From Dethiobacter alkaliphilus (GTDB lineage: Bacteria; Bacillota; Dethiobacteria; DTU022; UBA8154), in contig JAENYV010000001.1 of NCBI GenBank assembly GCA_016841605.1, positions 165,553 to 229,552 of the forward strand: a DNA stretch of 64,000 nt. Direction: 5' to 3'. Under the pieces are notes generated by a model that was given only the letters and a program-made list of their open reading frames with translations, did no database searches and was not told the DNA's origin. Shown here in pieces: positions 16,214-47,400 of the stretch (within the stretch, counting starts at the first letter, position 1; the number at the start of each line of letters is the position of its first letter). A program made the position numbers and the translations under genes.

Positions 16214-16237
16214 AGAGAGCTCAAATAAAATTTATGG

Positions 16238-16278: not shown

Positions 16279-16330
16279 CCGTTAACATGGCAAGTATTCT
16301 CTTTGCAACTATGCTCTTCGAGGTGTACCG

Positions 16331-18076: not shown

Positions 18077-18115
18077 CGTATCAACTTGACGTATTGCCTG
18101 CGAAGGAGTTTTTTT

Positions 18116-31600: not shown

Positions 31601-31629
31601 TTCAAAAGAGCGGTTTTTTTGCTATAATG
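31601..31629 (+). promoter_or_regulatory. Sigma-70-type promoter (TTCAAA-N16-TGcTATAAT, extended -10)
   Basis: Lies upstream of the ModE-N/PBP regulator gene. Confidence 0.45.
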
Positions 31630-31661
31630 TACCACAATGAGCGGTGTCGGGAGGATGACAC

Positions 31662-32828
31662 ATGGTTAAAAATTTTTCCAATGAATTTAAAATAGCTCTC
31701 CAGCTGGAAGGGGAAAAGTCTCTTTCCGGAAATGACCTTTTTACTCTCTTAGAAAATATCATGCTTTCCGGTTCGATCAGCAGTGCAGCGGCGCGGATGG
31801 GTGCCTCTTACCGCTATTGCTGGGGGCTGATCCAGGGGGCGGAAAAAACTCTGGGTCTTACATTGGTAGATAAGCAGGTAGGCGGGGTAGCCGGTGGGGG
31901 AACTTCACTGACACCTCAGGGAAAAGAGTTGCTTGAGCAGTATAAGGCTTTTAAACAGGAAGTTGACAGTCAGTTAAAACACTTCCTGGCCCGGACCGGT
32001 AGTACGCCCTCTCAAGATGTTTTTGTCTCAGCCGGACAGCCCGAAAAAGCGGATGAGAGGACTGCTGTGCGGCACCTCTTACTGGCCAGTACTATGGAAG
32101 CAGTGGAAACCGGGCTGATGGATCTTTTGGAAGAGGCTTTTTTCCATACCAGCAGTATCCTGGTCAGGCATATCTCCATCGGCAGCGGACGAGCTTTGCA
32201 GATTGCCAGGGAAGGCCGCGTCGATGTGGTGCTTTCTCATGCTCCGGAACTGGAGAAGTCCTTTATGGACGAGGGCTGGGGAGTAGAAATGATCCCCATC
32301 ATGGCCAATGATTTTGTTATTGCCGGCCCTCTATCCGACCCGGTGGGGGTATCTGAACTGTCCGGTGCGGTAGAGGCTTTCAGAAAGATCGCTTCCTCCC
32401 AGGTGCCCTTTATTAGCCGCGGCGACAGTTCGGGGACCCACCAGCGGGAAAAGGAAATTTGGAAACAGGCGGGGATAATTCCCGAAGGACAGTGGTATAC
32501 CAAATCTTCGGGAATGGTGGGAAATCTGGGAGCCTTACATCTGGCCAGGGAAAAAGAGGGCTATACTCTTGTTGACCGGGCGACCTTTCTTATTTCCCGT
32601 GAGGAAAAAATGATTATTTTTCCTCCTGGAGAAAAAGCAAATGATCCGGCCTGGACCCTGGAAAATATTTTTGTCCTAACCATAGTCAACCCGGAGCGTG
32701 TTCCCGGAGTCAAACTCGCTGATGCGCGGCTTTTTGCCCGCTGGCTGCTGGAAAGGGAAGGGCAGGAGCTTATTTCCTCTTTCGGCCGTGAAACTTTTGG
32801 AACCCCTCTTTTTTCCAGAGTTACCTGA
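31662..32828 (+). CDS. Transcriptional regulator: ModE-type N-terminal HTH fused to a periplasmic-binding-protein-like (molybdate/tungstate-type) domain (TunR-like, COG1910-type)
   Basis: The N-terminus (LSGNDLFTLLENIMLSGSISSAAARMGASYRYCWGLIQGAEKTLGLTLVDKQVGG..GGTSLTPQG) is a ModE N-domain. The C-terminal roughly 250 aa is PBP-like and has no signal peptide. Confidence 0.6.
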   Translation: MVKNFSNEFKIALQLEGEKSLSGNDLFTLLENIMLSGSISSAAARMGASYRYCWGLIQGAEKTLGLTLVDKQVGGVAGGGTSLTPQGKELLEQYKAFKQEVDSQLKHFLARTGSTPSQDVFVSAGQPEKADERTAVRHLLLASTMEAVETGLMDLLEEAFFHTSSILVRHISIGSGRALQIAREGRVDVVLSHAPELEKSFMDEGWGVEMIPIMANDFVIAGPLSDPVGVSELSGAVEAFRKIASSQVPFISRGDSSGTHQREKEIWKQAGIIPEGQWYTKSSGMVGNLGALHLAREKEGYTLVDRATFLISREEKMIIFPPGEKANDPAWTLENIFVLTIVNPERVPGVKLADARLFARWLLEREGQELISSFGRETFGTPLFSRVT

Positions 32829-32902
32829 TCCGCCTTATTAGGCCGTGCGGATTTTTTTGTAACCGCTATGCAATTTAATGCATATCCGATGACTTGATAA
32901 TA

Positions 32903-32931
32903 TTGACACCCATTTCTTTTTTAAATATAAT
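32903..32931 (+). promoter_or_regulatory. Consensus sigma-70 promoter TTGACA-N17-TATAAT with a roughly 160-nt leader
   Basis: Perfect hexamers. The leader contains the palindrome GGCATAATGCC (about 33061-33071) just before the RBS AAGGAGGAGGAG. Confidence 0.6.
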
Positions 32932-33095
32932 AGCACATGGAAGGTTCATCGCGGTGGACACTACTTGAAGGAGATGAAACAAACAGAAAAAAGAAAAATT
33001 AAGGGGCAGGCTGAAATTCTATCTTTTTGTACCGGTATATGCTGTCGTTATGTCAAAATAGGCATAATGCCTGCTTAATAAAGGAGGAGGAGACA

Positions 33096-34253
33096 TTGAA
33101 AAAGTTTATCCAATTACTACTTATTGCAGTAATGATTTTATCAATCTTTATGGGAACCTGGGGTTGTACGGCCCAGCCGGAGGAAACTGCCCCGGCGACG
33201 TCCGGTGAGGAGATATCGGCAACTCCTGAGGAGACTACACCCGCGACACGGGAGGTAGTGGACCTCGCGGAGAGAACCGTGACCGTTCCTGCGGAACCAA
33301 AGAAAGTAGCAACAATGCAGGGCCCAACGTATGAGATGGTTTTTATGCTGGGAGCCAAAGACCGGATAGGTCTTGTCAGGGATGACCATCCAACTGCTTA
33401 TCCTCTCGCCCTGTTGACCAATCCTGACCTTGCGAACTATCCGACCATTGCCGGTGTCGGGCCCCAGAGCCCGGTTAATGTGGAAGAATTTATTAATAAA
33501 GGGGTTGACCTGGTTATCTACTGGAACATTGAACAGGAACTCACGAAGTTTGATAATGCCGGCATCCCCGCGCTTGTGATAAACTGGTCGACTTTTCAGC
33601 CGACTAATATTGAGGAAGCTCTTATGGACTCCAAGAAACAGATTTCATTCCTTGCGGACGTGCTGGGCGGCAAGGCGCCCGAGCGCTATGCAGATTGGGA
33701 AAGCTATCTTGACGAGACCGTTGAATTTATCCGGTCCCGTACGGCACAAATTCCGGAAGATGAACGCCCTGTTGTCTACTGGGGCAATAGTTGGGGTCCC
33801 AATATCCTTTCCACATGGCCTCTTACGCCGAAACAATTTGAAGTGGAACTTTGCGGCGGCAAGCTTGTCAGCGTAGAAAAGGGCGGCCAGTTTCCGGAGA
33901 CAACCAAAGAACAGTTGCTCGCCTGGGAGCCTGAAGTAATTATTGTTGATAATCACGGAGGGAGTCCGGAACAAGTTATTGAAGAGCTTAAGAGCAGCGC
34001 AGACTGGGCTTCATTGCCCGCGGTCAAGAATGACCGTCTCTATCGCATACCTGCCGGCGTCTTCTTCCTGGATAAAGGAACCAGCCGTACTGTCTATTAC
34101 TACTGGCTGGCAAAACAACTGCATCCCGATCTGTTCGAAGATGTTGACTTGATTAAGGAATTAAAGTACTACTTCAAGACTTTCTATGATTATGAGCTGA
34201 CCACGGAGGAGGGCGAAAAAGTGCTCGCGGGCTGGGCGGAAACAAGAAAATAA
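33096..34253 (+). CDS. ABC transporter substrate-binding lipoprotein, class III (FecB/BtuF/heme-siderophore type)
   Basis: Lipobox (TWGC) and PBP type 2 features. The likely start is TTG 33096, after the RBS. The ORF track opens at 33027. Confidence 0.7.
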   Translation: MKKFIQLLLIAVMILSIFMGTWGCTAQPEETAPATSGEEISATPEETTPATREVVDLAERTVTVPAEPKKVATMQGPTYEMVFMLGAKDRIGLVRDDHPTAYPLALLTNPDLANYPTIAGVGPQSPVNVEEFINKGVDLVIYWNIEQELTKFDNAGIPALVINWSTFQPTNIEEALMDSKKQISFLADVLGGKAPERYADWESYLDETVEFIRSRTAQIPEDERPVVYWGNSWGPNILSTWPLTPKQFEVELCGGKLVSVEKGGQFPETTKEQLLAWEPEVIIVDNHGGSPEQVIEELKSSADWASLPAVKNDRLYRIPAGVFFLDKGTSRTVYYYWLAKQLHPDLFEDVDLIKELKYYFKTFYDYELTTEEGEKVLAGWAETRK

Positions 34254-34277
34254 TCGGATAAAATCGGAGGGAAGGTC

Positions 34278-35366
34278 ATGCGCACTACAACGAATACGAT
34301 AAAGCCAACGCCGGTCCAAAAACAGAAGAACCTGAACGAACAAACGGAGACGGAGAAACTTTCCTGCACTAAAATGGCATTGCTCATCGGCCTTCCCCTG
34401 CTTTTCTTCTTTATTTCTCTATTTTTGGGTCGTCACTTCATAGACCCGCTTACCGTTTTAAAGATCCTGGGGCAAAAGTTGCTCTCCTTACCTCTAGAGA
34501 CGACATGGACCGATACCATGGAAACGGTTGTCCTGCGCATCAGAATGCCCCGTGCCATCATGGCGGGTGCGGTCGGTGCCGGTCTTTCCATTTCCGGCGC
34601 CGCGTTTCAGGGGATGTTCCATAATCCTTTGGTGAGCCCCTTTGTCCTAGGCGTTTCTTCCGGAGCCGGCTTTGGCGCTGCACTGGCTATAGTTATGGAG
34701 GGCTCCATGCTGATGATTCAGCTGTTGGCATTTTTATTCGGTATAATCGCCGTCACCATCACCTATTGTACAAGCCGTATCTACAAAACAACCCCCATTT
34801 TGATGCTCGTCCTCTCCGGTATTGTTGTCTCCGCGCTCTTTCAGTCTCTGCTTTCTTTGCTCAAGTATACGGCAGATACGGAAGACAAGCTTCCTGCCAT
34901 TGTCTTCTGGTTAATGGGGAGTATGGGCAGTGTTAGCCTGGAGAATTTGCTCCCGGCTGTTGCCTCAATTGCCGCGGGCTGTCTTGGTCTGCTTCTTATC
35001 CGCTGGCGTTTCAACGTACTCTCTATGGGGGACCAGGAAGCCAGGTCTATGGGGATGAATACGGAATTGCTCAAGGGTATTATTATCGTCTGTACCACCA
35101 TTATCTCTTCCGTAGTAGTTGCTTTTTGCGGTATTATCGGCTGGGTGGGGCTGGTTATTCCCCACTTATGCCGTATGCTGGTAGGTCCCGATCACCGCGT
35201 GCTCATGCCCACTACTCTCTGTGTGGGAGCTGCCTATCTGATTTTTGTTGACAATATAGCCCGCATCATATCGCCGGCCGAGGTGCCTCTGGGTATTCTG
35301 ACCGCGCTGGTGGGCGCCCCGTTTTTTATGATTATGCTCAGGAAGACGAGAGGAGGCTGGGGATAA
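34278..35366 (+). CDS. FecCD-family ABC permease
   Basis: Polytopic. A C-terminal GAP sequence (LVGAPFF) is present; this motif is an assumption. Confidence 0.8.
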   Translation: MRTTTNTIKPTPVQKQKNLNEQTETEKLSCTKMALLIGLPLLFFFISLFLGRHFIDPLTVLKILGQKLLSLPLETTWTDTMETVVLRIRMPRAIMAGAVGAGLSISGAAFQGMFHNPLVSPFVLGVSSGAGFGAALAIVMEGSMLMIQLLAFLFGIIAVTITYCTSRIYKTTPILMLVLSGIVVSALFQSLLSLLKYTADTEDKLPAIVFWLMGSMGSVSLENLLPAVASIAAGCLGLLLIRWRFNVLSMGDQEARSMGMNTELLKGIIIVCTTIISSVVVAFCGIIGWVGLVIPHLCRMLVGPDHRVLMPTTLCVGAAYLIFVDNIARIISPAEVPLGILTALVGAPFFMIMLRKTRGGWG

Positions 35367-36184
35367 TGACGGCAAAGGTATCGGTTAGCTCTGCCTGCTT
35401 CAGCTATGGTGAGAAGGAAGTATGGAGGGATATCAATCTGAACGTGGAAAAAGGGGAAACCATCTGCCTGCTTGGTCCAAACGGCTGTGGTAAAACCACC
35501 CTTCTCAACTGCATACACGGGGACCTTGCCTTAAAAAGCGGAGATATCTATATTGACGGGCGCAATATCAAAACAATGGCGGTTACGGAGATTGCACGCA
35601 GCGTGGGTTACGTCTTTCAGGAGCACAGAGCGCCGTTTCCGTACAGTTCTCTTGAAGTGGTGAGAATGGGGCGTGCTCCTCATCTGGGTCTTTTCCAGGC
35701 TCCCTCCCGCGATGATACGGAGCTGGCTAGAAGCATCATGGAGGAGATGGGTATCGGTTACCTTGCGGCAAAACGCTATACCAACATATCGGGCGGGGAA
35801 CGTCAGCTTGTGCTTATCGCGCGGACGCTTTGTCAGCAACCGGAGATGATTTTGTTTGATGAACCGACCTCTCATCTTGATTTTAAGAACCAGGCACTTG
35901 TTCTCCGGACGATTAGCCGTCTGACCCGGAAAGGTCTCACCATTATTATGACAAGTCATTTTCCCAATCACGCCTGGCTGCTCAGCAGCAGGGTGGCCAT
36001 GATGGACAATAACGGCTTTGTGGCTCTGGGACCGGCGGAAGAGGTTATGACCGAAGAAAACCTGAGTGAAACTTACGGGGTGAGGGTTAAAGTCTACGAG
36101 GCCAAGGACGACCACAAGACTGTCAACTTCTGTACTCCGGAGTTCGTTCCGACGTCAAAGGGAGAGGGAGTCGATGATGATTAA
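35366..36184 (+). CDS. ABC transporter ATP-binding protein (FecE/BtuD-like)
   Basis: Walker A GPNGCGKTT, signature SGGERQ and Walker B ILFDEPTSHLD. Confidence 0.85.
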   Translation: MTAKVSVSSACFSYGEKEVWRDINLNVEKGETICLLGPNGCGKTTLLNCIHGDLALKSGDIYIDGRNIKTMAVTEIARSVGYVFQEHRAPFPYSSLEVVRMGRAPHLGLFQAPSRDDTELARSIMEEMGIGYLAAKRYTNISGGERQLVLIARTLCQQPEMILFDEPTSHLDFKNQALVLRTISRLTRKGLTIIMTSHFPNHAWLLSSRVAMMDNNGFVALGPAEEVMTEENLSETYGVRVKVYEAKDDHKTVNFCTPEFVPTSKGEGVDDD

Positions 36185-36222
36185 GCACGAAAATTTAAAA
36201 ACCTTTCAGCGGGGGAGATAAG

Positions 36223-36813
36223 ATGAAAAAGACGTTTTATAATCTTCTTCAGCCGATTTATCCTTTGCTTGCGCAGCAGTTTGTGGATGATTACGGTTTG
36301 CAAAGCGGCAGGTGTATTGATATAGGAGCCGGTCCCGGCTTTATCGGTATCGAACTGGCCAAAATAACCGATATGGAAATATATTTTGTCGACACTGTTG
36401 ATGAACAGCTGAAACTGGCGCAGGCTAATTTTTTAGCATCCGGAAGCGAAAATAAAGCGCATTTTATTAATTCCGATGTTCACCAATTGGCCTTTGAAGA
36501 TAACTTTGGCGATTTTATTGTCAGCAGGGGTTCGATCTGGTTTTGGCGGGAGCCCCGGGAAGCGTTAAAGGAAATATACCGTGTCCTTAAACCCGGAGGG
36601 ACAGCCTTAATTGGAGGAGGGCTCGGCAGATACGTTCCTGAAACAATGAGAAAACGCTTGATGGAAGCGAATCAGAAAAGACTGGCTGAGCGAGGAGAAA
36701 AAAGACCTACTTTGGCAGAGTTTCAGTTGATGGTGGAAGAGGCCCATTTACCCCATTATCTCGTTATCAGTGAAGAACCGGGAGTGGGAAGATGGGTCGA
36801 GATCAAGAAGTAA
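36223..36813 (+). CDS. Class I SAM-dependent methyltransferase
   Basis: IDIGAGPG motif I and LKPGG motif. Confidence 0.65.
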   Translation: MKKTFYNLLQPIYPLLAQQFVDDYGLQSGRCIDIGAGPGFIGIELAKITDMEIYFVDTVDEQLKLAQANFLASGSENKAHFINSDVHQLAFEDNFGDFIVSRGSIWFWREPREALKEIYRVLKPGGTALIGGGLGRYVPETMRKRLMEANQKRLAERGEKRPTLAEFQLMVEEAHLPHYLVISEEPGVGRWVEIKK

Positions 36814-36866
36814 GCGAAAATGAGTAGAGGAATAAATTTAAAGAAAGAAAGGGGAGTGAGAAACCT

Positions 36867-37757
36867 GTGAACCGCATACTTATTCACACCCCCATCAACA
36901 TCCGGAAAGCCCTTGTAGACGCTTTAAAACAGCATCTTAAGGAATTTAGGAATAAGCACGGGATGGAGATAAGCGTAGAAACTCCCGGCCATAACCATGC
37001 GGAAAACTGGCTGGTTAAGTGTATGGAAGAAGGTTCATTTCCGGATATGGTGATAGCCCATGCTACTGATTTCGCTCCTTTAAACCGGCAGCAGCTTAAA
37101 GAAATATTCCTGCCCGTCGGGGAACGGTTTCCTTTGCGGAGGGAGTTGGATAGGTTCCGGGAAGAAGGAGGGCTTTTAAATCCTGTTTTCCTCGTTCCCC
37201 TTGTCATTGCTTGCAACACCGACATGGTCGATGAGGCAAAGAGGCCGGAAAAATGGGAAGACCTGCTTAAATCTGAATGGGAAAATATGGTAACTTTTCC
37301 TGCCGGTGAAACGCCCATCTCCCAGGCGGTCCTCTCTTTCCTTGCCGACAAGTATCCGGATAAATTCAGAGATTTTTTCCCTTCCATTGTCTTTCAGAGC
37401 TCTGTTCCGGAGGTTCTCCAGTCTATGGGAGCGGGAAATTTCCCCCTGGCTGTGGCCAATATTTCTTTTGCCAAAATGCTCCGTCAGAAACATGTCATAC
37501 CTTTATGGCCCCGGGAAGGAGCCGTGTGTATTCCCCAGGTAGCGGTCTGGTCCCGCAACGCCGATAAAAGACTGCTGGAGCTTGGCGAATTTTTCCGCAG
37601 CCGGCAGTTGCAGGAACTGTTTGCCCACCAGGGCTTTATTCCGGTAATTCCCGAAGTTTCTTTGCCGGCGGAATTGCCCGGTCGGAATTTTTCTTTCACC
37701 TGGGAAGGCTGGGACCCGTTTCTGGAAAGTATCAGGAAAGGTTGTGGCGCCCGGTGA
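36867..37757 (+). CDS. Cytoplasmic periplasmic-binding-protein-like protein (no signal peptide)
   Basis: Sequence resembles family-1 SBPs (a PEKWEDLL segment parallels PETWEDLL in the 15092 SBP), but there is no secretion signal. Confidence 0.35.
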   Translation: MNRILIHTPINIRKALVDALKQHLKEFRNKHGMEISVETPGHNHAENWLVKCMEEGSFPDMVIAHATDFAPLNRQQLKEIFLPVGERFPLRRELDRFREEGGLLNPVFLVPLVIACNTDMVDEAKRPEKWEDLLKSEWENMVTFPAGETPISQAVLSFLADKYPDKFRDFFPSIVFQSSVPEVLQSMGAGNFPLAVANISFAKMLRQKHVIPLWPREGAVCIPQVAVWSRNADKRLLELGEFFRSRQLQELFAHQGFIPVIPEVSLPAELPGRNFSFTWEGWDPFLESIRKGCGAR

Positions 37758-38449
37758 AGTTGCTTACGGTCTGTGGCCCACCTTCTTCAGGGAAAACTTC
37801 CGTTATCACGAAAACCATAGAGATCCTGCGGCAGCAGGGGCTGAACGCGGGAGTGGTTAAATTTGATTGCCTGACAACTCATGATGATGCTTTATACGAA
37901 GAAAAAGGAATCAAAAATAAAGTCGGTCTCTCCGACAGCCTTTGCCCCGATCATTTTCTGGTGAGCAATATTGAGGGGTGTCTTCGCTGGGGCATCGATC
38001 AGGGTTTCGATCTTCTCATCACCGAAAGCGCAGGCCTCTGCAGCCGGTGTTCTCCTCATATTAAGGGTGTTCCGGCCGTGTGCGTGATGGATAACCTGAT
38101 GGGAATCAATACCCCGAAAAAAACCGGCCCCATGCTGAGATTCGCCGATATCGTCGTTATTACTAAAGGAGATATTGTTTCTCAGGCCGAAAGAGAAGTG
38201 TTTGCCTTCAGGATTAAACAGGTAAACCCCCGGGGCAAGATCCTGCATATAAACGGAATTACCGGGCAGGGAACGTTTCAATTGGCCGGGTTGTTTATGG
38301 AGGCCGGGGATATCCGGACCCTTAAAGACAAAGAGCTCCGCTATTCCATGCCTTCGGCCCTTTGTTCCTACTGCCTGGGGGAAAGACAAATCGGAGAAGA
38401 ATTTCAAATGGGAAGCGGAAAAAAAATGGTTTTTGATGAGGTAAAGTGA
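37742..38449 (+). CDS. G3E-family P-loop GTPase (HypB/UreG/CobW/MeaB-like putative metallochaperone)
   Basis: Walker A CGPPSSGKTS, an ESAG switch-like motif and an (I/L)TKxD base-specificity motif (VITKGDIV). Its start overlaps the upstream gene. Confidence 0.5.
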   Translation: MWRPVKLLTVCGPPSSGKTSVITKTIEILRQQGLNAGVVKFDCLTTHDDALYEEKGIKNKVGLSDSLCPDHFLVSNIEGCLRWGIDQGFDLLITESAGLCSRCSPHIKGVPAVCVMDNLMGINTPKKTGPMLRFADIVVITKGDIVSQAEREVFAFRIKQVNPRGKILHINGITGQGTFQLAGLFMEAGDIRTLKDKELRYSMPSALCSYCLGERQIGEEFQMGSGKKMVFDEVK

Positions 38450-38450
38450 G

Positions 38451-39452
38451 ATGGGTTTACAACAAAATTCTTTCCTGAAAATGGAACAGCTCATAAAAGA
38501 GTATCCGCCGCTGAGAGGTTTTTTAGAGAACATGAACCTGCCTCTTGACAAGATTACGCTTCTCCCGGAAGAGTATTTTCGCTCTCTGGATAGCTTTGTT
38601 TTGGAAGAAACAGGTTTGGGGCGGGTGGAGTTGCAGGATCTTTTCCAGTCTTACCTCCAACACCTGCAAATGATCAAGGAGGATCAGGGAAGCATCGGTT
38701 CCTTGACCCTATGGGGCGGTCAGGATAAAGCGGGAAAGCCGGAAGAGGTGCATCTGCATATACAAAGGGGGGAGATAGTCTGTCTTGTGGGTCCCACCGG
38801 TTCGGGCAAGAGCAGGCTTTTGGAGGATATTGAGTGGCTGGCGCAGCAAGATACCGTCACCCGCAGAAAAGTAACCATCGACGGAAATGTTCCCCGTGAG
38901 GAGTTGAGGTTTTCCTCCGGACGAAAATTGGTCGCGCAGCTGTCGCAGAATATGAATTTTGTGATGGATGTCACTGTTTATGAATTTCTTAAGATGCACG
39001 CTGAAAGCCGCTTGATGAAAAATATAGAAGAACTGGTGGATATCGTGGTTGAACAGGCCAATCTCCTTACCGGGGAAAGTTTTGGGAAGGATGTGCCGGT
39101 CACATCATTGAGCGGCGGGCAGTCACGCGCTTTGATGATTGCCGATACGGCCGCGTTAAGCGTAGCACCGGTCGTTCTCATTGACGAAATTGAGAATGCC
39201 GGTATTAACAGGAGTAAAGCGCTGGAGCTGCTGGTCAGCCGGGATAAGATCGTCTTTATCGCCACCCATGATCCCATTTTGGCTCTCATGGGCCACAAAA
39301 GGCTAGTAATGAAAAACGGGGGAATGATCAAAGTCCTGGAAAGATCGGAAAAAGAACTTGAGGCTCTTGAGAAACTTCAAATGATAGATAGAAAAATTAA
39401 TGAAGCCCGGCAACTACTGAGGGAAGGTGCGAAACTGGAAAGTTTATTTTAG
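38451..39452 (+). CDS. Stand-alone ABC-type ATPase with about 100-aa N-terminal extension
   Basis: Walker A GPTGSGKS, signature LSGGQSRAL and Walker B VVLIDEIE. It has no adjacent permease of its own. Its start is 2 nt after the GTPase stop. Confidence 0.55.
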   Translation: MGLQQNSFLKMEQLIKEYPPLRGFLENMNLPLDKITLLPEEYFRSLDSFVLEETGLGRVELQDLFQSYLQHLQMIKEDQGSIGSLTLWGGQDKAGKPEEVHLHIQRGEIVCLVGPTGSGKSRLLEDIEWLAQQDTVTRRKVTIDGNVPREELRFSSGRKLVAQLSQNMNFVMDVTVYEFLKMHAESRLMKNIEELVDIVVEQANLLTGESFGKDVPVTSLSGGQSRALMIADTAALSVAPVVLIDEIENAGINRSKALELLVSRDKIVFIATHDPILALMGHKRLVMKNGGMIKVLERSEKELEALEKLQMIDRKINEARQLLREGAKLESLF

Positions 39453-39545
39453 AGTAGCACATATAAACGGGTTTCATAAATAGGACGCTCGTACGGCGCT
39501 ATTTTTTGCTTTACTTAAATATTTATATTATTGGGAGGTTTTTTA

Positions 39546-40367
39546 GTGAAAAGGTTTTTTGGGATTTGTGTTGCAGTTTTCTTTATTGTCTTGTTGGGGG
39601 TAACAGGCGGTTGCGGGTCCGGGAATACGGATGACGCTTCCGGTGCAGGTCAAGAAATACAGCCGGGCAGCACGGGAGAAGAGCTCCTGGTCTACAGTGG
39701 TGCCGGATTACGCAAACCAATGGAAGAAATTGCGGGAATGTTCCAGGAAGAAACCGGTATTTTGGTTCAATTTTCCTTTGGTGGTTCAGCTCAGTGTGTC
39801 GGTCAGATTCTGACCGTCGATAAGGGGGATGCCTTTTTGCCGGGGGATGTGGTAGAATTAGATAAATTGATTGAAAAAGATAAGATTGACCTGCAAAAAC
39901 CGGTAGTTCTGCATGTCCCTGTGCTCGCTGTTCCTGCGGGTAATCCCGCCGGGATAACCGGAATAGAAGATCTTGCCGAACCGGGAATTAAGGTTGTTTT
40001 GGGCGACCCTGAGGCCAATCCGATCGGTAAACTGGCTGATAAGGCATTGCAAGAGCTTGGCCTTTTTGAAAAAGTGCAGGCTAATGTCGTGGCCCGGGCA
40101 GCTACGGTCAATGAGCTCTTTGCTTACCTTGCCCTGGGACAGGCAGATGTTGCCGTCATTTGGGAAGACAATCTGGTCGGCAATGAAAAGATCGAACTGA
40201 TTCAGACTTCGGATTTTGATAACTTTATCAAAACTATCCCTGTTGTCTCTTTGAAATGCTCGACCAACCCTGAAGCGGCCAACCGGTTTGTTGAGTTCGT
40301 ATCAAGTGAAAAAGCGATGGGCGTTTGGGAGAAATGCGGGTTTAAACCGGCACCGGAGGCCGAGTAG
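39546..40367 (+). CDS. Molybdate/tungstate ABC transporter substrate-binding lipoprotein (ModA/TupA/WtpA family)
   Basis: Lipobox (VTGGCGS), and VYSGAGLRKPMEEI...FSFGGS is typical of ModA-type binding proteins. The start is probably GTG 39546, after a GGGAGG RBS. The ORF track opens at 39531. Confidence 0.8.
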   Translation: MKRFFGICVAVFFIVLLGVTGGCGSGNTDDASGAGQEIQPGSTGEELLVYSGAGLRKPMEEIAGMFQEETGILVQFSFGGSAQCVGQILTVDKGDAFLPGDVVELDKLIEKDKIDLQKPVVLHVPVLAVPAGNPAGITGIEDLAEPGIKVVLGDPEANPIGKLADKALQELGLFEKVQANVVARAATVNELFAYLALGQADVAVIWEDNLVGNEKIELIQTSDFDNFIKTIPVVSLKCSTNPEAANRFVEFVSSEKAMGVWEKCGFKPAPEAE

Positions 40368-40370
40368 TAA

Positions 40371-41180
40371 ATGAAGAAACTTTGGTGGAAAGACAAATTT
40401 AACATCTTTATGGCTGCAATAGCTTATCTTACTCTTCTTTTTATTATTGCTGCTATTGGAACGGTAATAATGAAGGGGTTTCCGCATATCGGTAAATCCC
40501 TTGCCACCCCGGAGATTCAATTTGCCGTCAAGCTAAGTCTTTATACTTCGCTGATTTCCACGGTTCTCTGTATTGTAATTGCCATTCCTGTAGCATTTGT
40601 TCTGGCCAGGGTGGATATCCCTTTTAAATCTCTTTTCAATACCCTGTTGGATTTACCCCTGGCCTTGCCGCCGGTGGTATCGGGTGTCTGTCTCCTGCTC
40701 TTTTTTGGGACGACAGCTTTCGGAGCCTGGCTGGAAGAGATCGGTCTCCCCTTTGTCTTCACGATAAAAGGAATCATCATTGCCCAAATTTTTGTCAACC
40801 TTCCTTTTATGATCCGGGTCATGAAGTCGACAATTCTCTCGGTGAGCCCGCGTCTGGAATTTATCGCGCGGACCCTGGGCTGTACTCCGACTCAGGCTTT
40901 CTGGAAGATAACCCTCCCTCTTTCAAGAAACGGAATCATTGCCGGGACTGTCATTACCTGGGCAAGAGCGTTAGGGGAGTTCGGAGCAGCGTTGATGCTG
41001 GCCGGAGCAACACGCTTTCGCACGGAGACTTTGCCGATCTCCCTTTTTCTCAACATGTCGACCGGAGATTTGGAAGAGGCGATGGCAGCAGCAAACCTGT
41101 TGATAATAATATCTATTATCTCTCTCTATATCTTTAACAAATTAGGCGGTGATTTTATCGGAGGGACCCGCGGTGTTTAA
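40371..41180 (+). CDS. Molybdate/tungstate ABC permease (ModB/TupB)
   Basis: Permease EAA-like region (ARTLGCTPTQAFWKITLP). Confidence 0.85.
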   Translation: MKKLWWKDKFNIFMAAIAYLTLLFIIAAIGTVIMKGFPHIGKSLATPEIQFAVKLSLYTSLISTVLCIVIAIPVAFVLARVDIPFKSLFNTLLDLPLALPPVVSGVCLLLFFGTTAFGAWLEEIGLPFVFTIKGIIIAQIFVNLPFMIRVMKSTILSVSPRLEFIARTLGCTPTQAFWKITLPLSRNGIIAGTVITWARALGEFGAALMLAGATRFRTETLPISLFLNMSTGDLEEAMAAANLLIIISIISLYIFNKLGGDFIGGTRGV

Positions 41181-41229
41181 ATTTTAGGCGGTTAAGTAAA
41201 ACAAGCATTTTTGTTGGGGAGGACGGCAA

Positions 41230-41958
41230 ATGATAAAACTTGCAGATGTGTCAATAACGCTGGGGGATTTTTCACTGAAGAATGTTCATCTGGAAATAAG
41301 AAAAGGAGAATTCTTTACTATCCTGGGGCCGACGGGTACCGGAAAAACCGTCATCCTGGAGCTGATTGCCGGGTTGTACAGGCCGGACGCCGGTAAAGTG
41401 TTAATTAACGGAGCAGACTCTGAAAACATTCCTCCCGAAAAAAGAGAAATCGGTTTTGTTTATCAGGATTATGCACTTTTTCCCCATCTTAATGTATATA
41501 AAAACATTGCCTTTGGGCCACGACTTCGCAAAATGCCGCCTTCTGCGATTAAAGAAAATGTCCAGGGCCTGGCGGATATGCTGGAAATTACGCACCTGTT
41601 GGCCCGTTTTCCCGGTACTTTGAGCGGTGGTGAGCAGCAGCGTGTTTCACTGGCCAGAGCCCTTATCATGAAACCAAAAATACTTTTAATGGATGAACCG
41701 CTCAGTGCTCTTGATCCCAATACAAAAAGGATGTTATGCGGGGAACTGAAAAGAGTACATGAAAAATACCGCTGTACTGTTGTCCATGTTACCCATGATT
41801 TTAACGAAGCGGCTATGCTGGCGGACCGGATCGGGGTTATACTGAAGGGAAAGGTAAAGCAAGTAGGAGTTCCCAGGGAGGTCTTTGAAAGACCCCGGGA
41901 TCAAGAAGTAAAAAATTTCCTGGGCGTTGAGCCCTTAAAAGCCGTCTATGCACGATAA
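41230..41958 (+). CDS. Molybdate/tungstate ABC ATPase (ModC/TupC)
   Basis: Walker A GPTGTGKT, signature LSGGEQQR and Walker B LLMDEPLSALD. Confidence 0.85.
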   Translation: MIKLADVSITLGDFSLKNVHLEIRKGEFFTILGPTGTGKTVILELIAGLYRPDAGKVLINGADSENIPPEKREIGFVYQDYALFPHLNVYKNIAFGPRLRKMPPSAIKENVQGLADMLEITHLLARFPGTLSGGEQQRVSLARALIMKPKILLMDEPLSALDPNTKRMLCGELKRVHEKYRCTVVHVTHDFNEAAMLADRIGVILKGKVKQVGVPREVFERPRDQEVKNFLGVEPLKAVYAR

Positions 41959-42028
41959 AGAAACTTTTAGGGAATGAAAGAGGGGCATCCCTGATTTTTA
42001 ATAACTTGAACAGGTTAAAAAGGGGTGA

Positions 42029-43030
42029 GTGAAGATTATGCAGTGCGGGTATTGCGCAAGCAGGTGTGAGCTTGAAGGGAAAAAAGCAGGTGTGTGCGGG
42101 ATGTATGCTGTAGTGGATGGTGAGATCAGAGAGCGTTTTCCCAACACGTGGTCGACATATCATGCGACACATATTGAGCAGATACCGTTTTTCCATGCTT
42201 ATCCGGGCAGCAGAAGTCTTCTTGTGGGAACGGCAGGATGTAATTTTAGCTGCAGCTATTGTATGAATGCCTATGTAGCTAAGGAAAAACCCGAAAACCT
42301 GGATTTGTTTGAACTGACACCGGAAAAGCTGGTCAAAACGGCAAAATTGTCAGGCTGCCATAATATTGTGTTTGGAGTAAATGAGGTAACAGTATCGCTA
42401 CCCTCAGCCATAAATTTGGCCAAAGAGGCCAAATTGCACAACTTGCCCATGGGATGCCTCTCAAATGGATATATGACAGAGGAAGCGGCAGGTTTGCTTG
42501 CTGATCATATGTCATTTTTAAATATCAGTTTAAAATCTCTTTCTCCGGAATTTTACCAAAAATATGCCGGAGTAACCGATATAAAGCCTGTCCTGCGCAA
42601 TATTGAAAAATTTGCCGTAAAGAATCATCTGGAAATTACAACTCCGATAGTTCAGTCTGTCAATGATCATGAGATAGAGGAAATAGCAAAATATATCCGT
42701 GACATTGATCCCAATATACCCTGGCATGTATTCAGACTTCTTCCGGAGTATAAAATGAAGGATTATGCCTATCCTGACATTGAAAAAATAAGCGAGGCTT
42801 TGCAAAAAGCCGGAGAAATACTTCCTTACATCTATTTCAGTAATTTTGTCGGTTCCCCCTGGGTAAGCACAAACTGTCCTGAATGCGGTAAAACCGTCAT
42901 TAATCGTATCAGTCTGGGCACCTGTGGAGCTAAGCTGCTGAATAATCTTTTACTTGAGAACAGGTGTCCCGGCTGCGGTGAAAAAATAGCTGTTTTGGAA
43001 GATTATGAAAAGGGAATTCCGGGAAGGTGA
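42029..43030 (+). CDS. Radical SAM enzyme, AmmeMemoRadiSam/YjjW-type (PflA-like activase family)
   Basis: QCGYCASRCEL...GVCG N-terminal Cys cluster, an IPFFHAYPGS segment, GCNFSCSYCMN (CxxxCxxC) and a C-terminal CPECG...CPGCG rubredoxin-like pair of CxxC motifs. No AMMECR1 or MEMO1 partner lies in the window. Confidence 0.7.
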   Translation: MKIMQCGYCASRCELEGKKAGVCGMYAVVDGEIRERFPNTWSTYHATHIEQIPFFHAYPGSRSLLVGTAGCNFSCSYCMNAYVAKEKPENLDLFELTPEKLVKTAKLSGCHNIVFGVNEVTVSLPSAINLAKEAKLHNLPMGCLSNGYMTEEAAGLLADHMSFLNISLKSLSPEFYQKYAGVTDIKPVLRNIEKFAVKNHLEITTPIVQSVNDHEIEEIAKYIRDIDPNIPWHVFRLLPEYKMKDYAYPDIEKISEALQKAGEILPYIYFSNFVGSPWVSTNCPECGKTVINRISLGTCGAKLLNNLLLENRCPGCGEKIAVLEDYEKGIPGR

Positions 43031-43034
43031 GAGT

Positions 43035-44177
43035 ATGAGTACAGGAATAATTGATGTCAGGGACTGGCAGGTAACCGTAGATTTCCAAACAGGAAATAAA
43101 ATTGAGCTGGAAAATGAACTTACCGGTATGGTCAGGGAGATTATCCGGAACAACAGATATCCCGGGGATATGGATCTGCGAAGTATTGACTGGGTTACTG
43201 ATATGGGATTAAGGCTGGCGGACAAATACAATCCCGATTTTATGTTCCTCAGCTATGCGCAGCCGTATTTTTTTTCCGCCTATGGGCAGGGTACGCCCGG
43301 GGAATGGGAATCAGTTATGAAAAGAATATTTGACAATGTAGAAAAGTTTCTCGCGGGGACGGACTTTTGGCCTGTTGTGGTCGGACTGGGCCGTATGACC
43401 GATCTGCTGGGAAAAATTGATTTAAGTATTCTTGACTGTTTGGCAATTGCTACCAACTGGTCTTTACAATATGCAGGCCTCTTCAATCCCACGGCGGAGG
43501 ATGTAGAAAAAGTAATGGCCATGCCAAAGCTTGAAAAGGTAATTAGTAAGGAAGATTTTGTTAAGGAGTATGGCGGGAGTGAGAGCTTCATCAAAAGATT
43601 CCCCGACTATCTGCTTACTGCTGAAGAGGGTTATACCTTCAAAGGATTTGAAAGTACCTCCAGAAAAATAAAAAAAATACCTGCTAAAAATATTGAAATA
43701 CCAATATATACTACTTTGGGTGAAGTAAATTCCCTTATTGATATCAGAGGATTAATTGACAGTGTACTGCCGGAGAAAAAAGTAGCCCTGATAGTTATTG
43801 AGGCAATAGGAGCCGGAGACTTCGAGTATGAATATAAGCTATGTTCCAATAAATTAAACTCCTATATATATGAACATATTGAAAGTCAGTACCTGGCCAT
43901 GACAACGGGCAAACACTTTCAGTATCATCCTTTTCCTCCTGTTTTTAAATTTTTCGAAGAAGACAATGAAAATAAAAGTTATCCGTTTTCAGGAAGCCAC
44001 TATACACTTCCACAGGATACCATCGGCAGACGGAAGGATATTAAGAGCGGCGCGGTCGGAACAAGAGGAATGGTAACACATGTGGCAAGTGGAGCGGATA
44101 TTTGTATTGAATGTTATGCCAGACAGCTTTCCAATATGGGAACGCTGGCAGTTATTAATGATACAAAAAATGAATAA
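43035..44177 (+). CDS. Hypothetical cytoplasmic protein (about 380 aa)
   Basis: The ORF opens at 43005 and overlaps the radical SAM gene. A likely start is MSTGIIDV at about 43035. No confident family assignment. Confidence 0.35.
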   Translation: MSTGIIDVRDWQVTVDFQTGNKIELENELTGMVREIIRNNRYPGDMDLRSIDWVTDMGLRLADKYNPDFMFLSYAQPYFFSAYGQGTPGEWESVMKRIFDNVEKFLAGTDFWPVVVGLGRMTDLLGKIDLSILDCLAIATNWSLQYAGLFNPTAEDVEKVMAMPKLEKVISKEDFVKEYGGSESFIKRFPDYLLTAEEGYTFKGFESTSRKIKKIPAKNIEIPIYTTLGEVNSLIDIRGLIDSVLPEKKVALIVIEAIGAGDFEYEYKLCSNKLNSYIYEHIESQYLAMTTGKHFQYHPFPPVFKFFEEDNENKSYPFSGSHYTLPQDTIGRRKDIKSGAVGTRGMVTHVASGADICIECYARQLSNMGTLAVINDTKNE

Positions 44178-44251: not shown

Positions 44252-44301
44252 TTGACACCCCTTGTTTATACATATATAATTTTCCTGTAGTGGTAAAAAA
44301 G
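44252..44301 (+). promoter_or_regulatory. Promoter/leader module copy A (TTGACA-N17-TATAAT + TGGTAAAAAAG box)
   Basis: Perfect sigma-70 hexamers at 44252-44257 and 44275-44280. The conserved box is at 44291-44301. Confidence 0.7.
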
Positions 44302-44398: not shown

Positions 44399-44424
44399 GC
44401 ATTATGCCTGTTCAGGCATAATGC
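44399..44424 (+). promoter_or_regulatory. 11-bp-stem hairpin/palindrome gcattatgcct-gttc-aggcataatgc in the 5' leader of the SLH protein gene
   Basis: Perfect inverted repeat containing two copies of the GGCATAATGC element that is also found at 33061. Confidence 0.55.
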
Positions 44425-44464: not shown

Positions 44465-47400
44465 ATGCTGATTACTAACAAAAATTGGTGGTACAGGCTC
44501 CTGCCGTCTATTTTGATTGTGCTCCTGCTTCCCTGTTTCTTCGGCCTGCCGGTACCGGCCGCTGTTCATTCCGAAGGGGGCATTGTTACAATAACAGAGC
44601 CCACCGGGAATATCAAGAATACCGTTAGCAAGGAAACAGCAAGCGGACCAGGCGGTTCGGCCGGCAACAATGTCACTTTTAAGGACCAGGTTCCCGTATT
44701 TTTGAACATGAATAATCCTGACGGTGTAACCGGGAAAGAAGTGTATGCAGGGCATACCTTATCCGGAACCGACGGCGCAACCCCCGCGGATACAGACAGC
44801 CGTGGATTTATCGTGGTAATGGATGAAGCCGGAATACCAGCTCCGGCTTTGACTGCCGATACCAGCGATAACCTGCTTGGGAAGTCCATAGATATTACCT
44901 TTACGGATAATGCCTCCTGGCGGGCGGCGATTAGCGGTGTGCTTGTGGACGGGGTAGCGCTGCAGTCCGGCAAATACACGGTAAGCGCCGGCAAAATCAG
45001 CATTTCCGGCAGCGTTTTCCAGGAATCGAAAGAATACGCCATTGTAGTTGCAGCCAATGGTTACACCGATGCAAGTGTGAGCCAGATAATCGGTACATTG
45101 ATAATTACCGGAGACGGGGTGACGGATCCCCAAATTTTTACGCAGCCCCAACTCGAGGCAATGCAGCCCCAGCTCGAGGAAATGGAGCCCCAGCATGTTG
45201 TTTACAGTTGCATTAATACCTGGCCCAGCAAGAAATGGTATGTGGGAAAAGGGGTCAAATTAGAAGACCTGCTCACCCAGGCGGGACTGAAAGAAACCGC
45301 CGAACAGATTAAATTCAGTTCCGTTGATGGCTACTATATGACGCTTACAGTCAAGGAGTTATTAACGGACAAGCGTTATTGTTTTCCCAATTTCAAAACC
45401 GGTGGCGACGGAGACGGGCATATTCCCGGTGACCCGTCGGGTGCATTCGAGGTGGAGACTATTCTAGGCCTGGTCAGCGCCGAGGGCACCGACGAATCTT
45501 CCTCTATGAACGATACAAATGCCCTGTTGCTGATGCTGGGGCAGCGGTCAGTTACCGAGCAAACAGGCCCCATATTTGTTAAATACGTCAATAAAATTGA
45601 AGTATTGACTGCTGCACCGGCTAAATGGGATAATCCGACGGCGAGCCCGGATAGTGGCATAGTATCTGCGGGGACCATGGTGGAACTGCATAGCAAGTAC
45701 AACGATTTGGATAAGGTCCATTATACGACGGACGGCAGTACTCCAACCATAGAAAGTCCCATGTATAACTGGATTGCCAGCCGGTGGTGGTCCTCGCGAC
45801 AGGATGTTAAGGACGAAATAAACCACCCGATTGAAATTACAAAGAACACCGCTATTAAGGCAATAGTAATCGGTCCAGGCAAAGAGGACAGCGATATTGT
45901 CACCTTCGAGTACCAGGTTCCTGTTATTATGAACACAGATAATCTTGCCGATGCAACCGAAAACGAAGCATACGCAGGTCATACCTTCACAGCGACAGGC
46001 GGAGCTGAGCCATACAGTTTTGCAGTAACTGCCGGGACACTGCCGGCAGGCATGGTTTTAAACGGTGCCGTATTGGAAGGAACGCCGACTGAGAGTGGGA
46101 CATTTCTCTTCACTGTAACCTTAACGGACAGTGCAGATCCCGCGGATGCAGACAGCCATGAGTTTACCCTGGCGGTTGATGAGGCTGAAGTAGTCACGCC
46201 GGTCTTGAATGCCGATACGACGGACAATAAAGTTGGACAGCCGATCGAGCTGACCTTTACGGATGATGGGCTCTGGCGTTCGGCGATTAGCGGTGTGTTT
46301 GTGGACGAAGTGGTGCTTCAGCCGGAGGAATACACGGTAAGCGCCGGTAAGATTAACATAGCTGCCGGAGTCTTCACGTCAGCAAAAGATTACAGTATCG
46401 TAGTGGAAGCCGAAGGGTACGAAGATGCGGCCGTGACGCAGATTATCACTACGTCGTCAACGCCGGAGACTAAGGAACCACCGGTTCTGACCGCCGATAG
46501 TAGCGATAACCTGAAGGGACGGCCGATCGAGCTGACTTTTACGGATGATGGGCTCTGGCGTTCGGCGATTAGCGGTGTGCTGGTGGACGAAGTGGTGCTT
46601 CAGCCGGAGGAATACACGGTAAGCGCCGGTAAGATTAACATAGCTGCCGGAGTCTTCACGTCAGCAAAAGATTACAGTATCGTAGTGGAAGCCGAAGGGT
46701 ACGAAGATGCGGCCGTGACACAGATTATCACTACGTCGTCAGCGCCGGAAACTAAGGAACCACCGGTTTTGACCGCCGATAATAGCGATAACCTGCTTGG
46801 GCAGGGTATAGATATTACCTTTACGGATGATGGCTCCTGGCGTTCGGCGATTCAAGAGGTTAGTGTGGACGGCGCGGTGCTTCAGCCGGAGAAATACACG
46901 GTTAGTGCCGGTAAGATTGCCATTGTTTCCGGCGTTTTCAAGGAATCGAAAGAATACGCCATCGTAGTTAAAGCAGGCGGGTACCCCGATGCAAGTGTGA
47001 GCCAAACGATTAATAGATTGGTAATTACAGGAGCCGGGGTGACTGAATCCAAGATGTTTACGCAGTCCCAGCTCGAAGCAATGTCGCAGCGCCAGTATGT
47101 GTACAGTTGCATCAATACCTGGCCCAGCAAAAAGTGGTATGTGGGAAAAGGGGTCAAATTGAGCGATCTGCTCACACAGGCGGGGATGAAGGGAAACGCC
47201 AAGCTCATTAAATTTTCTGCCGGCGATGGTTATGCCATGACACTTACTGTTCAGGAAATATTAACGGACAAGCGTTATCGTTTTCCTAATTTCAAGACCG
47301 GTGGCGATGGAGACGGGCATATTCCCGGCGATCCGTCGGGCAAAGTAGAGGTGGAAACTATTCTTGGGCTGGTCAGCGCCGAGGGCACGGACGACCCCTC

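Follow-up and report, generated by a model that had tools for sequence, protein, structure and literature searches.

Thirteen co-directional open reading frames (ORFs), numbered here g01 to g13, occupied positions 31662 to 44177 (~12.5 kb) on the forward strand of the window, i.e. the whole stretch of 64,000 nucleotides from Dethiobacter alkaliphilus contig JAENYV010000001.1 that was analysed. They encoded a regulator (g01), two ABC importers (g02-g04 and g09-g11), a methyltransferase (MT; g05), a binding-protein-fold protein (g06), a GTPase (g07), a soluble ATPase (g08), a radical S-adenosylmethionine (SAM) enzyme (rSAM; g12) and an uncharacterised protein (g13). The binding protein, the GTPase and the ATPase are referred to below as the trio. 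A role of this block in the handling of molybdenum or tungsten (Mo/W), probably tungsten, was well supported. The initial annotation had already described a unidirectional block with short or overlapping junctions and a window devoid of canonical moa, moe and mog genes; the former was confirmed, and none of these genes was found among window ORFs of at least 150 aa (ORFs merely shadowing called genes being excluded).

Layout, control region and importers

Junctions from g02 to g13 were all overlaps or gaps of at most 78 nt, using two start codons revised by alignment with homologues (GTG at 37754 for the GTPase and ATG at 43032 for g13). Genes g03/g04 and g06/g07 overlapped by one and four nt, respectively, while the remaining gaps measured 24 nt (g02/g03), 38 nt (g04/g05), 53 nt (g05/g06), 1 nt (g07/g08), 78 nt (g08/g09), 3 nt (g09/g10), 49 nt (g10/g11), 70 nt (g11/g12) and 1 nt (g12/g13). 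No convincing terminator was found within the gene block. The spacer separating g01 from g02 was 267 nt long and contained a terminator-like hairpin and a perfect sigma-70 promoter (TTGACA-17-TATAAT, 12/12; 32903-32931, forward strand) with a leader of 165 nt. This single strong promoter and the tight junctions suggest that g02 to g13 form one transcript. A promoter-like site was also present 5' of the regulator gene (31601-31628, forward strand; TTCAAA-16-TATAAT with an extended TG, 10/12), as a match to the consensus only.

A perfect palindrome, TATGCA-N6-TGCATA (32867-32884, with flanks CGCTATGCA..TGCATATCCG), was located immediately 5' of the -35 box of the operon promoter. It occurred as a single exact copy in the window, where looser copies stayed in the range of chance (five found, 2.4 expected), and it was absent from all 143 related loci checked; it remains a candidate operator only.

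Regulator g01 (31662-32828) associated a ModE-type N-terminal helix-turn-helix (HTH) domain with a TupA-like, i.e. tungstate-binding-protein-like, sensor domain. Residues 23-112 matched TIGR00637 (ModE_repress, 70 bits) and residues 137-375 matched NF041772 (TupA, E=6e-45, below the family cut-off), the corresponding Pfam domains being HTH_1 and PBP_like_2. The g01 regulator very probably senses tungstate or molybdate. Like ModE, it displays a ModE-type HTH and is found in the context of Mo/W transport genes; in contrast to ModE, whose sensor consists of Mop/TOBE domains, its sensor adopts the fold of periplasmic binding proteins. The label of TunR-like regulator given initially was not borne out. 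TunR combines an XerC/D-like (recombinase-like) DNA-binding domain with a ModE-like (Mop/TOBE) sensor, hence the reverse of the arrangement in g01, and neither an integrase nor a TOBE domain was matched in g01 with Pfam or NCBIfam.

The first importer was encoded by g02 to g04. The product of g02 (33096-34253) was a MolA-like class III substrate-binding lipoprotein (Peripla_BP_2; lipobox GTWGC) whose best matches in the PDB were 4ovk (E=1e-26), 2etv and then MolA HI_1472 (3psa; E=7.7e-12, 48 bits over the full length), against ~18 bits each for BtuF and IsdE. The closest solved relative of the type II permease g03 (34278-35366) was MolB HI1471 (2nq2_A; 248 bits, E=1.3e-72), ahead of HmuU (175 bits) and BtuC (130 bits), and the closest single-domain solved relative of the ATPase g04 (35366-36184) was MolC HI1470 (2nq2_C; 143.5 bits), ahead of HmuV (116.5 bits). 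Taken together, g02-g04 come closest to MolBC-A, a Haemophilus importer of type II for molybdate and tungstate. A siderophore, haem or B12 importer was rejected for g02-g04 because MolB and MolC were clearly the top solved relatives, and the FecBCD-type label of the initial annotation was replaced by MolA/B/C-like.

MolBC-A increases molybdate uptake in vivo, and MolA binds tungstate as well as molybdate, the latter weakly (PMC4031551). The Haemophilus influenzae system (HI1470/HI1471/HI1472) is likewise accompanied by a second, ModABC-type system (PMC4031551). The resemblance has its limits, since the match of g02 to MolA is modest and is surpassed by that to 4ovk, a binding protein whose ligand is unknown; moreover, the window and its relatives join the importer to cytoplasmic accessory modules, of which none is mentioned for Haemophilus (PMC4031551).

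The second importer consisted of a ModA-class molybdate/tungstate-binding lipoprotein (g09, 39531-40367; TIGR01256 modA, 95.3 bits for a cut-off of 62.5; SBP_bac_11, E=1.7e-54), a ModB-type permease (g10, 40371-41180; BPD_transp_1) and a ModC/WtpC-like ATPase (g11, 41230-41958). Both g02 and g09 carried lipoprotein signals. The top model for g11 was WtpC NF040840 (331 bits, cut-off 440), and its modC score (TIGR02142, 201 bits) was below the cut-off as well. Genes g09-g11 were accordingly classed, on family models, as a ModABC-class type I importer; the corresponding part of the initial annotation (modA/tupA-B-C) stood, except for the name tupA, the binding protein being of the ModA class.

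The trio and its genomic contexts

GTPase g07 (37754-38449) was a member of the G3E family (PF02492 cobW/HypB/UreG, 43.6 bits for a cut-off of 20.7, residues 9-168). It displayed a Walker A motif GPPSSGKT (12-19), a Glu-type Walker B motif ESAG (95-98) and a TKGD motif (141-144), all three invariant or almost so among 16 diverse homologues. A CPDH motif (68-71), sitting where UreG has CPH, was invariant, as were two further CxxC motifs of the family (ESAGLCxRCSP and CSYCxGE). Solved structures matched by the family profile were UreG (E=3.7e-9) and HypB. The G3E call made at the outset therefore holds, a MinD/ParA-type protein being dismissed by PF02492, the motifs and these profile matches. 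Protein g07 nevertheless fell far short of the cut-offs of all named G3E models (hypB, 41.4 for 121; ureG, 24.6 for 204; MeaB, 18 for 241; ZigA, 15.9 for 600), and g07 is therefore placed, on sequence criteria, in a separate and undescribed G3E sub-family whose nearest relatives are UreG and HypB.

PF02492, the Glu-type Walker B and the [NT]KxD motif are common to g07 and to UreG and HypB, which serve in nickel insertion. The two extra invariant CxxC motifs distinguish g07 from both, and so do its partners: a soluble ABC ATPase and a binding-protein-fold protein in place of UreE/F/H or HypA. Unlike UreG and HypB, the g07 family showed no linkage to urease or hydrogenase genes and was linked to Mo/W genes or to hcp. 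Homologues displaying 62-75% identity were spread over many bacterial and archaeal lineages, including Bacillota, Deferribacterales, Spirochaetes, Bacteroidales, Desulfuromonadales, Acidobacteriota, Cloacimonadota, Chlorobiaceae and methanogens, and at least 584 species carried relatives that were confirmed by scanning genomes. One GTPase ORF, in locus L078 (8419-9942; compared loci are designated by L numbers), was 507 aa long, about twice the usual length, possibly by fusion or as a frame artefact.

ATPase g08 (38451-39452) was a soluble ABC-type protein (ABC_tran, residues 99-246) preceded by a DUF1858-like N-terminal domain; its N-terminal ~80 aa were homologous to the DUF1858 domain of the canonical trio binding protein (hhalign 94%, E=1.5e-7). 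No dedicated permease partner was found for g08-type ATPases, most of the 80 loci surveyed below lacking a permease within 10 kb. SufC in SufBC2D and other permease-less soluble ABC ATPases resemble g08 in that it, too, would power the assembly of a cofactor or metal centre in the cytoplasm and not transport. In contrast to SufC, g08 has no SufB/D-like partner, carries the DUF1858-like domain and pairs with a G3E GTPase.

Binding protein g06 (36867-37757; SBP_bac_6, E=1.9e-23) was a cytoplasmic protein of a short form termed type B. Its first residues form beta-strand 1 of the fold, which leaves no signal peptide. The canonical binding protein measures ~410 aa, carries DUF1858 at its N-terminus and likewise has no signal peptide. 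The short form measures ~296-305 aa, is rarer (12 protein clusters found) and has neither the DUF1858 domain nor the Cys and His conserved almost invariably among canonical members. Its own invariant residues were H7, N11, H65, D68, N117 and N198. The AlphaFold2 (AF2) model of g06 had a predicted local distance difference test score (pLDDT) of 89, and its nearest folds were FutA1/FbpA ferric-binding proteins, with template-modelling (TM) scores of up to 0.79; the top 50 fold matches were ferric-, polyamine- and metal-citrate-binding proteins. An ordinary exported member of the same fold family was present elsewhere in the window, in a complete Fe(III)/polyamine-type ABC importer (15092-19174), whose SBP_bac_6 protein is secreted and whose other parts are an ATPase and a double BPD_transp_1 permease.

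Gene g05 (36223-36813) encoded a small class I SAM-dependent methyltransferase (Methyltransf_11/25/31) that reached no specific NCBIfam model. An MT gene of this type was also found directly 5' of the binding-protein gene in L144, L145 and L146, and homologues with 54-56% identity occurred in L017, L023, L042, L045 and L053. For the methyltransferase, the binding protein and the ATPase, searches of Pfam and NCBIfam agreed with the initial annotation.

Co-occurrence of the trio was counted in the 80 best GTPase loci of other genomes, in which, as in all compared loci, gene calls were ORF-based and labelled by BLAST against reference proteins run through Pfam. The ATPase gene was directly 3' of the GTPase gene in 77 of the 80 loci and a binding-protein-fold gene was present in at least 72, while every other family occurred in at most 11. 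The initial annotation had made its proposal depend on conservation of gene order in other genomes. Such co-conservation was strong for the trio and extended to the separate modules, yet the full order of 13 genes was retrieved in no other locus; the window order is a composite of separately conserved modules, namely MolABC, MT plus trio, ModABC, and rSAM plus g13.

A neighbour-joining tree of the GTPases displayed two groups, a large clade linked to hcp, the gene of hybrid-cluster protein (Hcp), plus the remaining branches, which include the window and have Mo/W-related neighbours. The large clade was accompanied by hcp, Rrf2- and Crp-type regulators, flavodiiron protein and YgbA_NO. The canonical trio was mostly found in an operon or divergon with hcp, an Rrf2/Crp regulator or YgbA_NO, and loci of this type were gathered in one clade (L004, L010, L012-L015, L018, L019, L024, L025, L028, L029, L033, L034, L036, L037, L039, L058-L060, L066, L071, L072, L077 and L081). 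Their gene content suggests an undescribed role of the hcp-linked trio in nitrosative stress or in the servicing of Hcp. As this sister clade has the same chassis of GTPase, ATPase and binding protein, the chassis is probably generic and its cargo clade-specific.

In the part of the tree containing the window, at least ten loci had the trio flanked by Mo/W-sensing regulators, modABC, moeA, modD or nif genes. The window GTPase grouped with those of L003, L007, L009, L031, L047, L054, L064, L078 and L083, whose neighbours were MolB-like importers, modABC, HTH_17+PBP_like regulators, moeA or nif genes. In L003, an HTH_17+PBP_like regulator gene was the first of the trio operon and divergent from modCBA. 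L007, from Anaerobacterium chartisolvens, displayed the co-directional order modABC-molABC-MT-binding protein-GTPase-ATPase-binding protein and constitutes an independent parallel to the window. L009 combined an HTH_17+PBP_like regulator, a MolB-like importer, a methyltransferase and an rSAM gene, and L083, from Alkaliphilus, combined DUF364, a MolB-like importer, rSAM and moeA. In L031 and L064 modCBA adjoined the trio, L031 having in addition NifV-like and NifB-like genes upstream, and both nifH and modABC were found in L047 and L078. Genes of nif type, comprising NifH, two homocitrate-synthase-like genes and a NifB-like radical SAM gene, adjoined the trio or the rSAM-g13 pair at L031 3680-6664, L047 12154-13017, L078 14215-15036 and L112 3-995. 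These associations may point, for some diazotrophs, to a connection with the supply of FeMo-cofactor.

A ModD-like gene (QRPTase fold; QRPTase_N/C) was located in the window outside the block, at 51698-52543 on the reverse strand, and belongs to the same Mo/W theme. Its product was 43% identical to that of a gene lying between nifH and modA in L047, and members of this family were found directly 3' of the trio in L144 and adjoining rSAM-g13 in L112 and L113.

A further sub-group was composed of the five loci with close g05 homologues (L017 and others listed above). Their operons were regulated by an ArsR-type protein and displayed the order FecE, short binding protein, MT, FecB, FecC (FhuB-like), GTPase, ATPase. 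This sub-group evidently couples the trio chassis to a different, chelate-type importer, and a siderophore-, haem- or B12-type importer was kept as the reading there, the permease being FhuB-like.

The closest relatives of the window operon were found in Syntrophomonadaceae, with GTPases displaying 68-75% identity; in the closest one, a transposase gene adjoined the operon. L085, L145 and L146 kept the order [MolA-MolB-MolC]-(MT)-binding protein-GTPase-ATPase, and in L144 a ModD-like gene was 3' of this unit. In L085, the Moco/Tuco (molybdenum/tungsten cofactor) riboswitch RF01055 was found just 5' of molA (82 bits, E=4e-18), the P3 stem being absent from the alignment. In L001, RF01055 (49 bits) ended at the ribosome-binding site of the binding-protein gene. 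According to Regulski et al. 2008 (PMC2408646), the Moco-motif RNA represses genes of Mo-cofactor metabolism, and representatives lacking P3 were connected by these authors with the metabolism of tungsten cofactor. A Tuco-type operon of Syntrophomonas wolfei with 'genes of unknown function' was already noted in that paper, which did not name the accessory families of the present locus (PMC2408646). The hallmark of the Moco/Tuco regulon, RF01055, also in its P3-less form, is present at orthologous operons of relatives, in contrast to the window, which has none. The riboswitches of L085 and L001 provided the strongest evidence that the window branch of the trio would act in W/Mo cofactor supply, and relatives are predicted to turn the operon on when the W/Mo cofactor is scarce. 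The leader at L145 3172-3284, 5' of the MolABC-MT-trio operon, looked by eye like a degraded Moco motif (CUCCCGUU...AAGGAGAA); it scored 5.8 bits (E=0.36) with our own model and was rejected as a riboswitch remnant.

The radical SAM enzyme and its partner

Gene g12 (42029-43030) encoded an activase-like radical SAM enzyme (Radical_SAM) with a C-terminal Cys-rich ribbon. The AmmeMemoRadiSam-type label of the initial annotation had to be abandoned: the TIGR04337 score was 158.7 bits for a cut-off of 220, no Pfam match to AMMECR1 or Memo was obtained in the window, and the partner gene was g13. The latter (43032-44177) encoded a protein without Pfam or NCBIfam match, whose homologues (66 protein clusters found) were all unnamed. 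Its AF2 model (pLDDT 90) suggested a fold like that of the alkaline-phosphatase superfamily, the top folds being weak matches to phosphonoacetate hydrolase 1ei6 (E=3.8e-5) and ENPP enzymes, with TM scores of up to 0.37. Residues R354, H359, D365 and E369 were conserved, while the Asp after strand 1 was not invariant in the alignment. Anaerobic sulfatase-maturating enzymes and sulfatases form a comparable pair of a radical SAM enzyme and an alkaline-phosphatase-fold protein. In contrast to that pair, g12 is activase-like without a SPASM match in Pfam or NCBIfam, and g13 is not recognisable as a sulfatase.

The pair was surveyed at three genome places and in 53 metagenome loci, of which 51 had a g13 ORF; the rSAM gene was immediately 5' of the g13 homologue in 40 of the 51. 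The ATPase of a type II importer adjoined the pair in 27 loci, and all 25 neighbouring permeases (25/25) were MolB-like. Other neighbours were moeA (five loci), modABC (six to seven loci), ModE, a MoeA-PBP_like fusion, DUF364, nifH and modD-like genes. DUF364 is a family of SAM-using enzymes according to its first characterised member (PMC12930334). The fusion, in L103, was a 652-aa protein joining MoeA to a PBP_like sensor domain, and in L105 an Oxidored_molyb-like protein adjoined moeA. RF01055 was found 5' of the importer-rSAM-g13 operon in L088, L089, L092, L093, L096 and L100, and a model (R1) built from these six matches detected the motif in L124 and L126 as well. In Gram-negative clusters, TonB-dependent receptor genes were located inside the MolBC-rSAM-g13 unit (L106, 5741-7864; L120, 4898-7039) or a few genes downstream of the pair (L090, 6566-8911). 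The trio was absent from all rSAM-g13 loci surveyed, so that the window combines two independent accessory modules around one importer.

Role of the operon, alternatives and neighbouring features

The block is best explained as a tungstate/molybdate-responsive operon for acquisition and processing, probably tungsten-weighted, in which the trio would act as a hand-over mechanism; we give this statement as a whole a probability of about 0.55. Its component linking the window branch of the trio to Mo/W is considerably more likely than the whole, and the step-by-step mechanism of the trio considerably less so. Such an operon likely marks an unknown step in the W/Mo handling of anaerobes.

Gene g01 precedes a strong promoter that, according to this proposal, would drive both the MolBC-A-like (g02-g04) and the ModABC (g09-g11) importers together with a first module (g05-g08) and a second one (g12-g13). 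Acting after import and before the synthesis of the cofactor, the first would serve as a nucleotide-driven hand-over device. Binding protein g06 would capture the imported species in the cytoplasm; a Cys-rich dimer of g07 would take over the metal through CPDH and the two CxxC motifs in a GTP-gated manner, as UreG and HypB do with nickel; and a dimer of g08, docked via its DUF1858-like domain, would drive release or loading to MoeA/molybdopterin or to a target enzyme. The second module would either act on a non-metal portion of what is imported or bring about the maturation of its partner protein. The initial annotation had suggested a dedicated intracellular trafficking or insertion pathway for Mo/W. 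The Mo/W theme was upheld for this branch by riboswitch, regulators and the MolBC-A-like importer, trafficking and insertion keeping their conjectural status; it did not extend to the whole GTPase family, whose neighbours were mostly hcp and nitrosative-stress genes.

Several observations weigh against the proposal. The commonest neighbours family-wide were genes of nitrosative stress, most loci of the wider family lacked any Mo/W gene, and the neighbour-joining tree separating the two contexts has no support values. The MT and the binding protein most similar to those of the window were found in the ArsR-regulated sub-group (L017, L023, L042, L045 and L053), next to an FhuB-like importer. The model of g06 was closest to PotD and to the Fe(III)/Fe(II)-binding FbpA/FutA proteins, and a ModA/WtpA/TupA-like fold found no support, none appearing in its top 50 fold matches. 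Cys-His motifs of the UreG/HypB kind are typical of soft cations (Ni, Zn, Fe), and an oxyanion cargo would to our knowledge be unprecedented among G3E proteins. Finally, RF01055 was absent from four other close relatives, and no Moco/Tuco riboswitch was detected in the window leader with our own covariance model run with filters off. The 165-nt leader matched no Rfam family either, whether at the gathering score or at E up to 5, and the window appears to use a protein regulator, the TupA-like g01, in place of a riboswitch.

Part of these observations would be accounted for if the trio were not Mo/W-specific and its chaperone or repair activity were directed at a cationic metal or Fe-S cluster (Fe, Ni, Co). 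Its location in Mo/W operons would then result from the Fe-S richness of Mo/W enzymes, MoaA and nitrogenase, or from gene hitch-hiking. The FbpA/FutA-like fold of g06 and the UreG/HypB-like CPDH and CxxC motifs of the GTPase agree with this idea, as do the association of the largest clade with hcp, Rrf2, Crp and flavodiiron genes, the nif genes (FeMo-cofactor, heavy in Fe-S) adjoining some trios, and the FhuB-type chelate importer with its ArsR regulator in one sub-group. DUF1858 is reportedly related to the N-terminal domain of the iron-centre repair proteins ScdA/RIC, which counts in the same direction. The idea is opposed by L001, where the riboswitch directly controls the binding-protein and GTPase genes with no importer gene between, by L003, where a Mo/W-type regulator heads the trio operon divergently from modCBA, and by the loss of the canonical conserved Cys and His in the window-type binding protein. 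We consider it unlikely for the trio of the window.

The cargo of the MolBC-like importer could also be a complexed form, such as a Mo/W metallophore, a thiometalate or a pterin or cofactor fragment, that both modules would process; the rSAM enzyme, the phosphatase-fold protein and the MT would act on its organic part while the trio would strip the metal and pass it on. TonB-dependent receptors in or near the Gram-negative clusters speak in favour of such a cargo, since free oxyanions should need none. So do the recurrence beside the clusters of phosphoesterases (g13 with its predicted alkaline-phosphatase fold, and Metallophos proteins in L090 and L121) and of the SAM-using family DUF364, the presence of surface proteins of a window family (see below) beside rSAM-g13 in L095 and L097, and the weak binding of molybdate by MolA (PMC4031551). 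Against it, MolA binds molybdate and tungstate directly and MolBC-A raises molybdate uptake in vivo (PMC4031551). Furthermore, no chelator-biosynthesis genes were recognised in the window, and the alkaline-phosphatase-fold match of g13 was weak (TM 0.37) with putative catalytic residues. A complexed cargo is deemed unlikely.

A bolder and distinctly doubtful extension would regard the whole neighbourhood as a scavenging route for a pre-formed Mo/W cofactor, pterin or metal-complex precursor, beyond free oxyanion alone. Surface proteins with a module resembling a Moco domain (in diderms, TonB-dependent receptors) would capture the compound for entry through the MolBC-like importer; trimming would fall to the phosphatase-fold protein with its rSAM partner, and the trio would re-metallate it or hand it on. 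If true, this would represent the first prokaryotic pathway of Moco/Tuco cofactor salvage and the first G3E chaperone acting on W/Mo.

An accidental mosaic of transport genes without shared function, to which the uniqueness of the 13-gene order and the transposase gene beside the closest relative's operon could point, is highly improbable given that the same families recombine in unrelated lineages (L007, L009, L083, L088, L112 and L120) under the same riboswitch or Mo/W sensors, and that the tight junctions and one strong promoter point to one transcript.

Returning to the tungstate/molybdate-responsive operon, its constituents belong to superfamilies already known (G3E GTPases, ABC ATPases, class II binding proteins, radical SAM enzymes and the alkaline-phosphatase fold), and the importers are of known kinds. 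New are the GTPase sub-family, its constant association with a cytoplasmic binding protein and with a DUF1858-ABC ATPase that has no permease, the connection of one trio branch with W/Mo regulons, and the recognition of rSAM-g13 as a module that accompanies MolBC. No description of the trio module or of the rSAM-g13 module was found in the searchable literature. The trio is a widespread and strongly conserved machine, found with 60-75% identity in at least 584 species of anaerobic bacteria and archaea, with no described function apparent; one of its branches is wired into Mo/W regulons through riboswitch, Mo/W-sensing regulators, MolBC/ModABC, moeA, modD and nif, and the pair of rSAM and predicted phosphatase-fold proteins is a second orphan module likewise wired into them. 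Discrimination between W and Mo and the route of the oxyanion from importer to molybdopterin are poorly understood, and we know of no nucleotide-driven chaperone assigned so far to W or Mo. If the proposal is true, the trio would form a fifth functional branch of G3E metallochaperones, and the Mo/W pathway map would be extended for syntrophs and other anaerobes dependent on tungsten enzymes. The hcp sister clade may in turn bear on the servicing of hybrid-cluster protein or of metal centres damaged by nitric oxide. Cultivable or tractable carriers include Methanosarcina, Acetobacterium, Sporomusa, Clostridium aceticum, Geobacteraceae and Anaerobacterium chartisolvens.

Downstream of the block, the window contained members of a family of surface proteins (44465-49567, 52907-54655 and 55644-57122), which was also represented in L095 (4906-5331 and 6350-6742) and L097 (3672-4097). 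Their module displayed a weak match to the sulfite-oxidase-type Moco domain (Oxidored_molyb, 24-35 bits), and in these two metagenome loci it was found beside rSAM-g13 pairs. A giant surface protein of 1700 aa carried four Shr-like haem-receptor HID domains and three SLH domains; its signal was of Sec type, not of Tat type. A second perfect sigma-70 promoter (44252-44280) was present 5' of its gene, and the leader contained TATGCC-N6-GGCATA (44403-44420), which differs by two mismatches from the palindrome at 32867-32884 and is in the range of chance. Two genes just downstream of the giant gene encoded Oxidored_molyb-like domains as well: one a small lipoprotein (49621-50205) and the other a PF09819 (ABC_cobalt) membrane protein (50262-51344), which we take to be akin to the S components of energy-coupling factor (ECF) transporters. 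Among the surface-protein genes was one of the MotA/ExbB proton-channel family (54662-55333); it might energise uptake, in parallel to the TonB-dependent receptors of the Gram-negative clusters.

Elsewhere in the window, a cluster resembling those for resistance to tellurite and toxic anions (StiP, AIM24, YceG_bac and TelA) was located at 111-6246, and a class II lanthipeptide synthetase of LanM type (DUF4135 and LANC_like), unrelated to the Mo/W block, was encoded on the reverse strand at 20277-23546.

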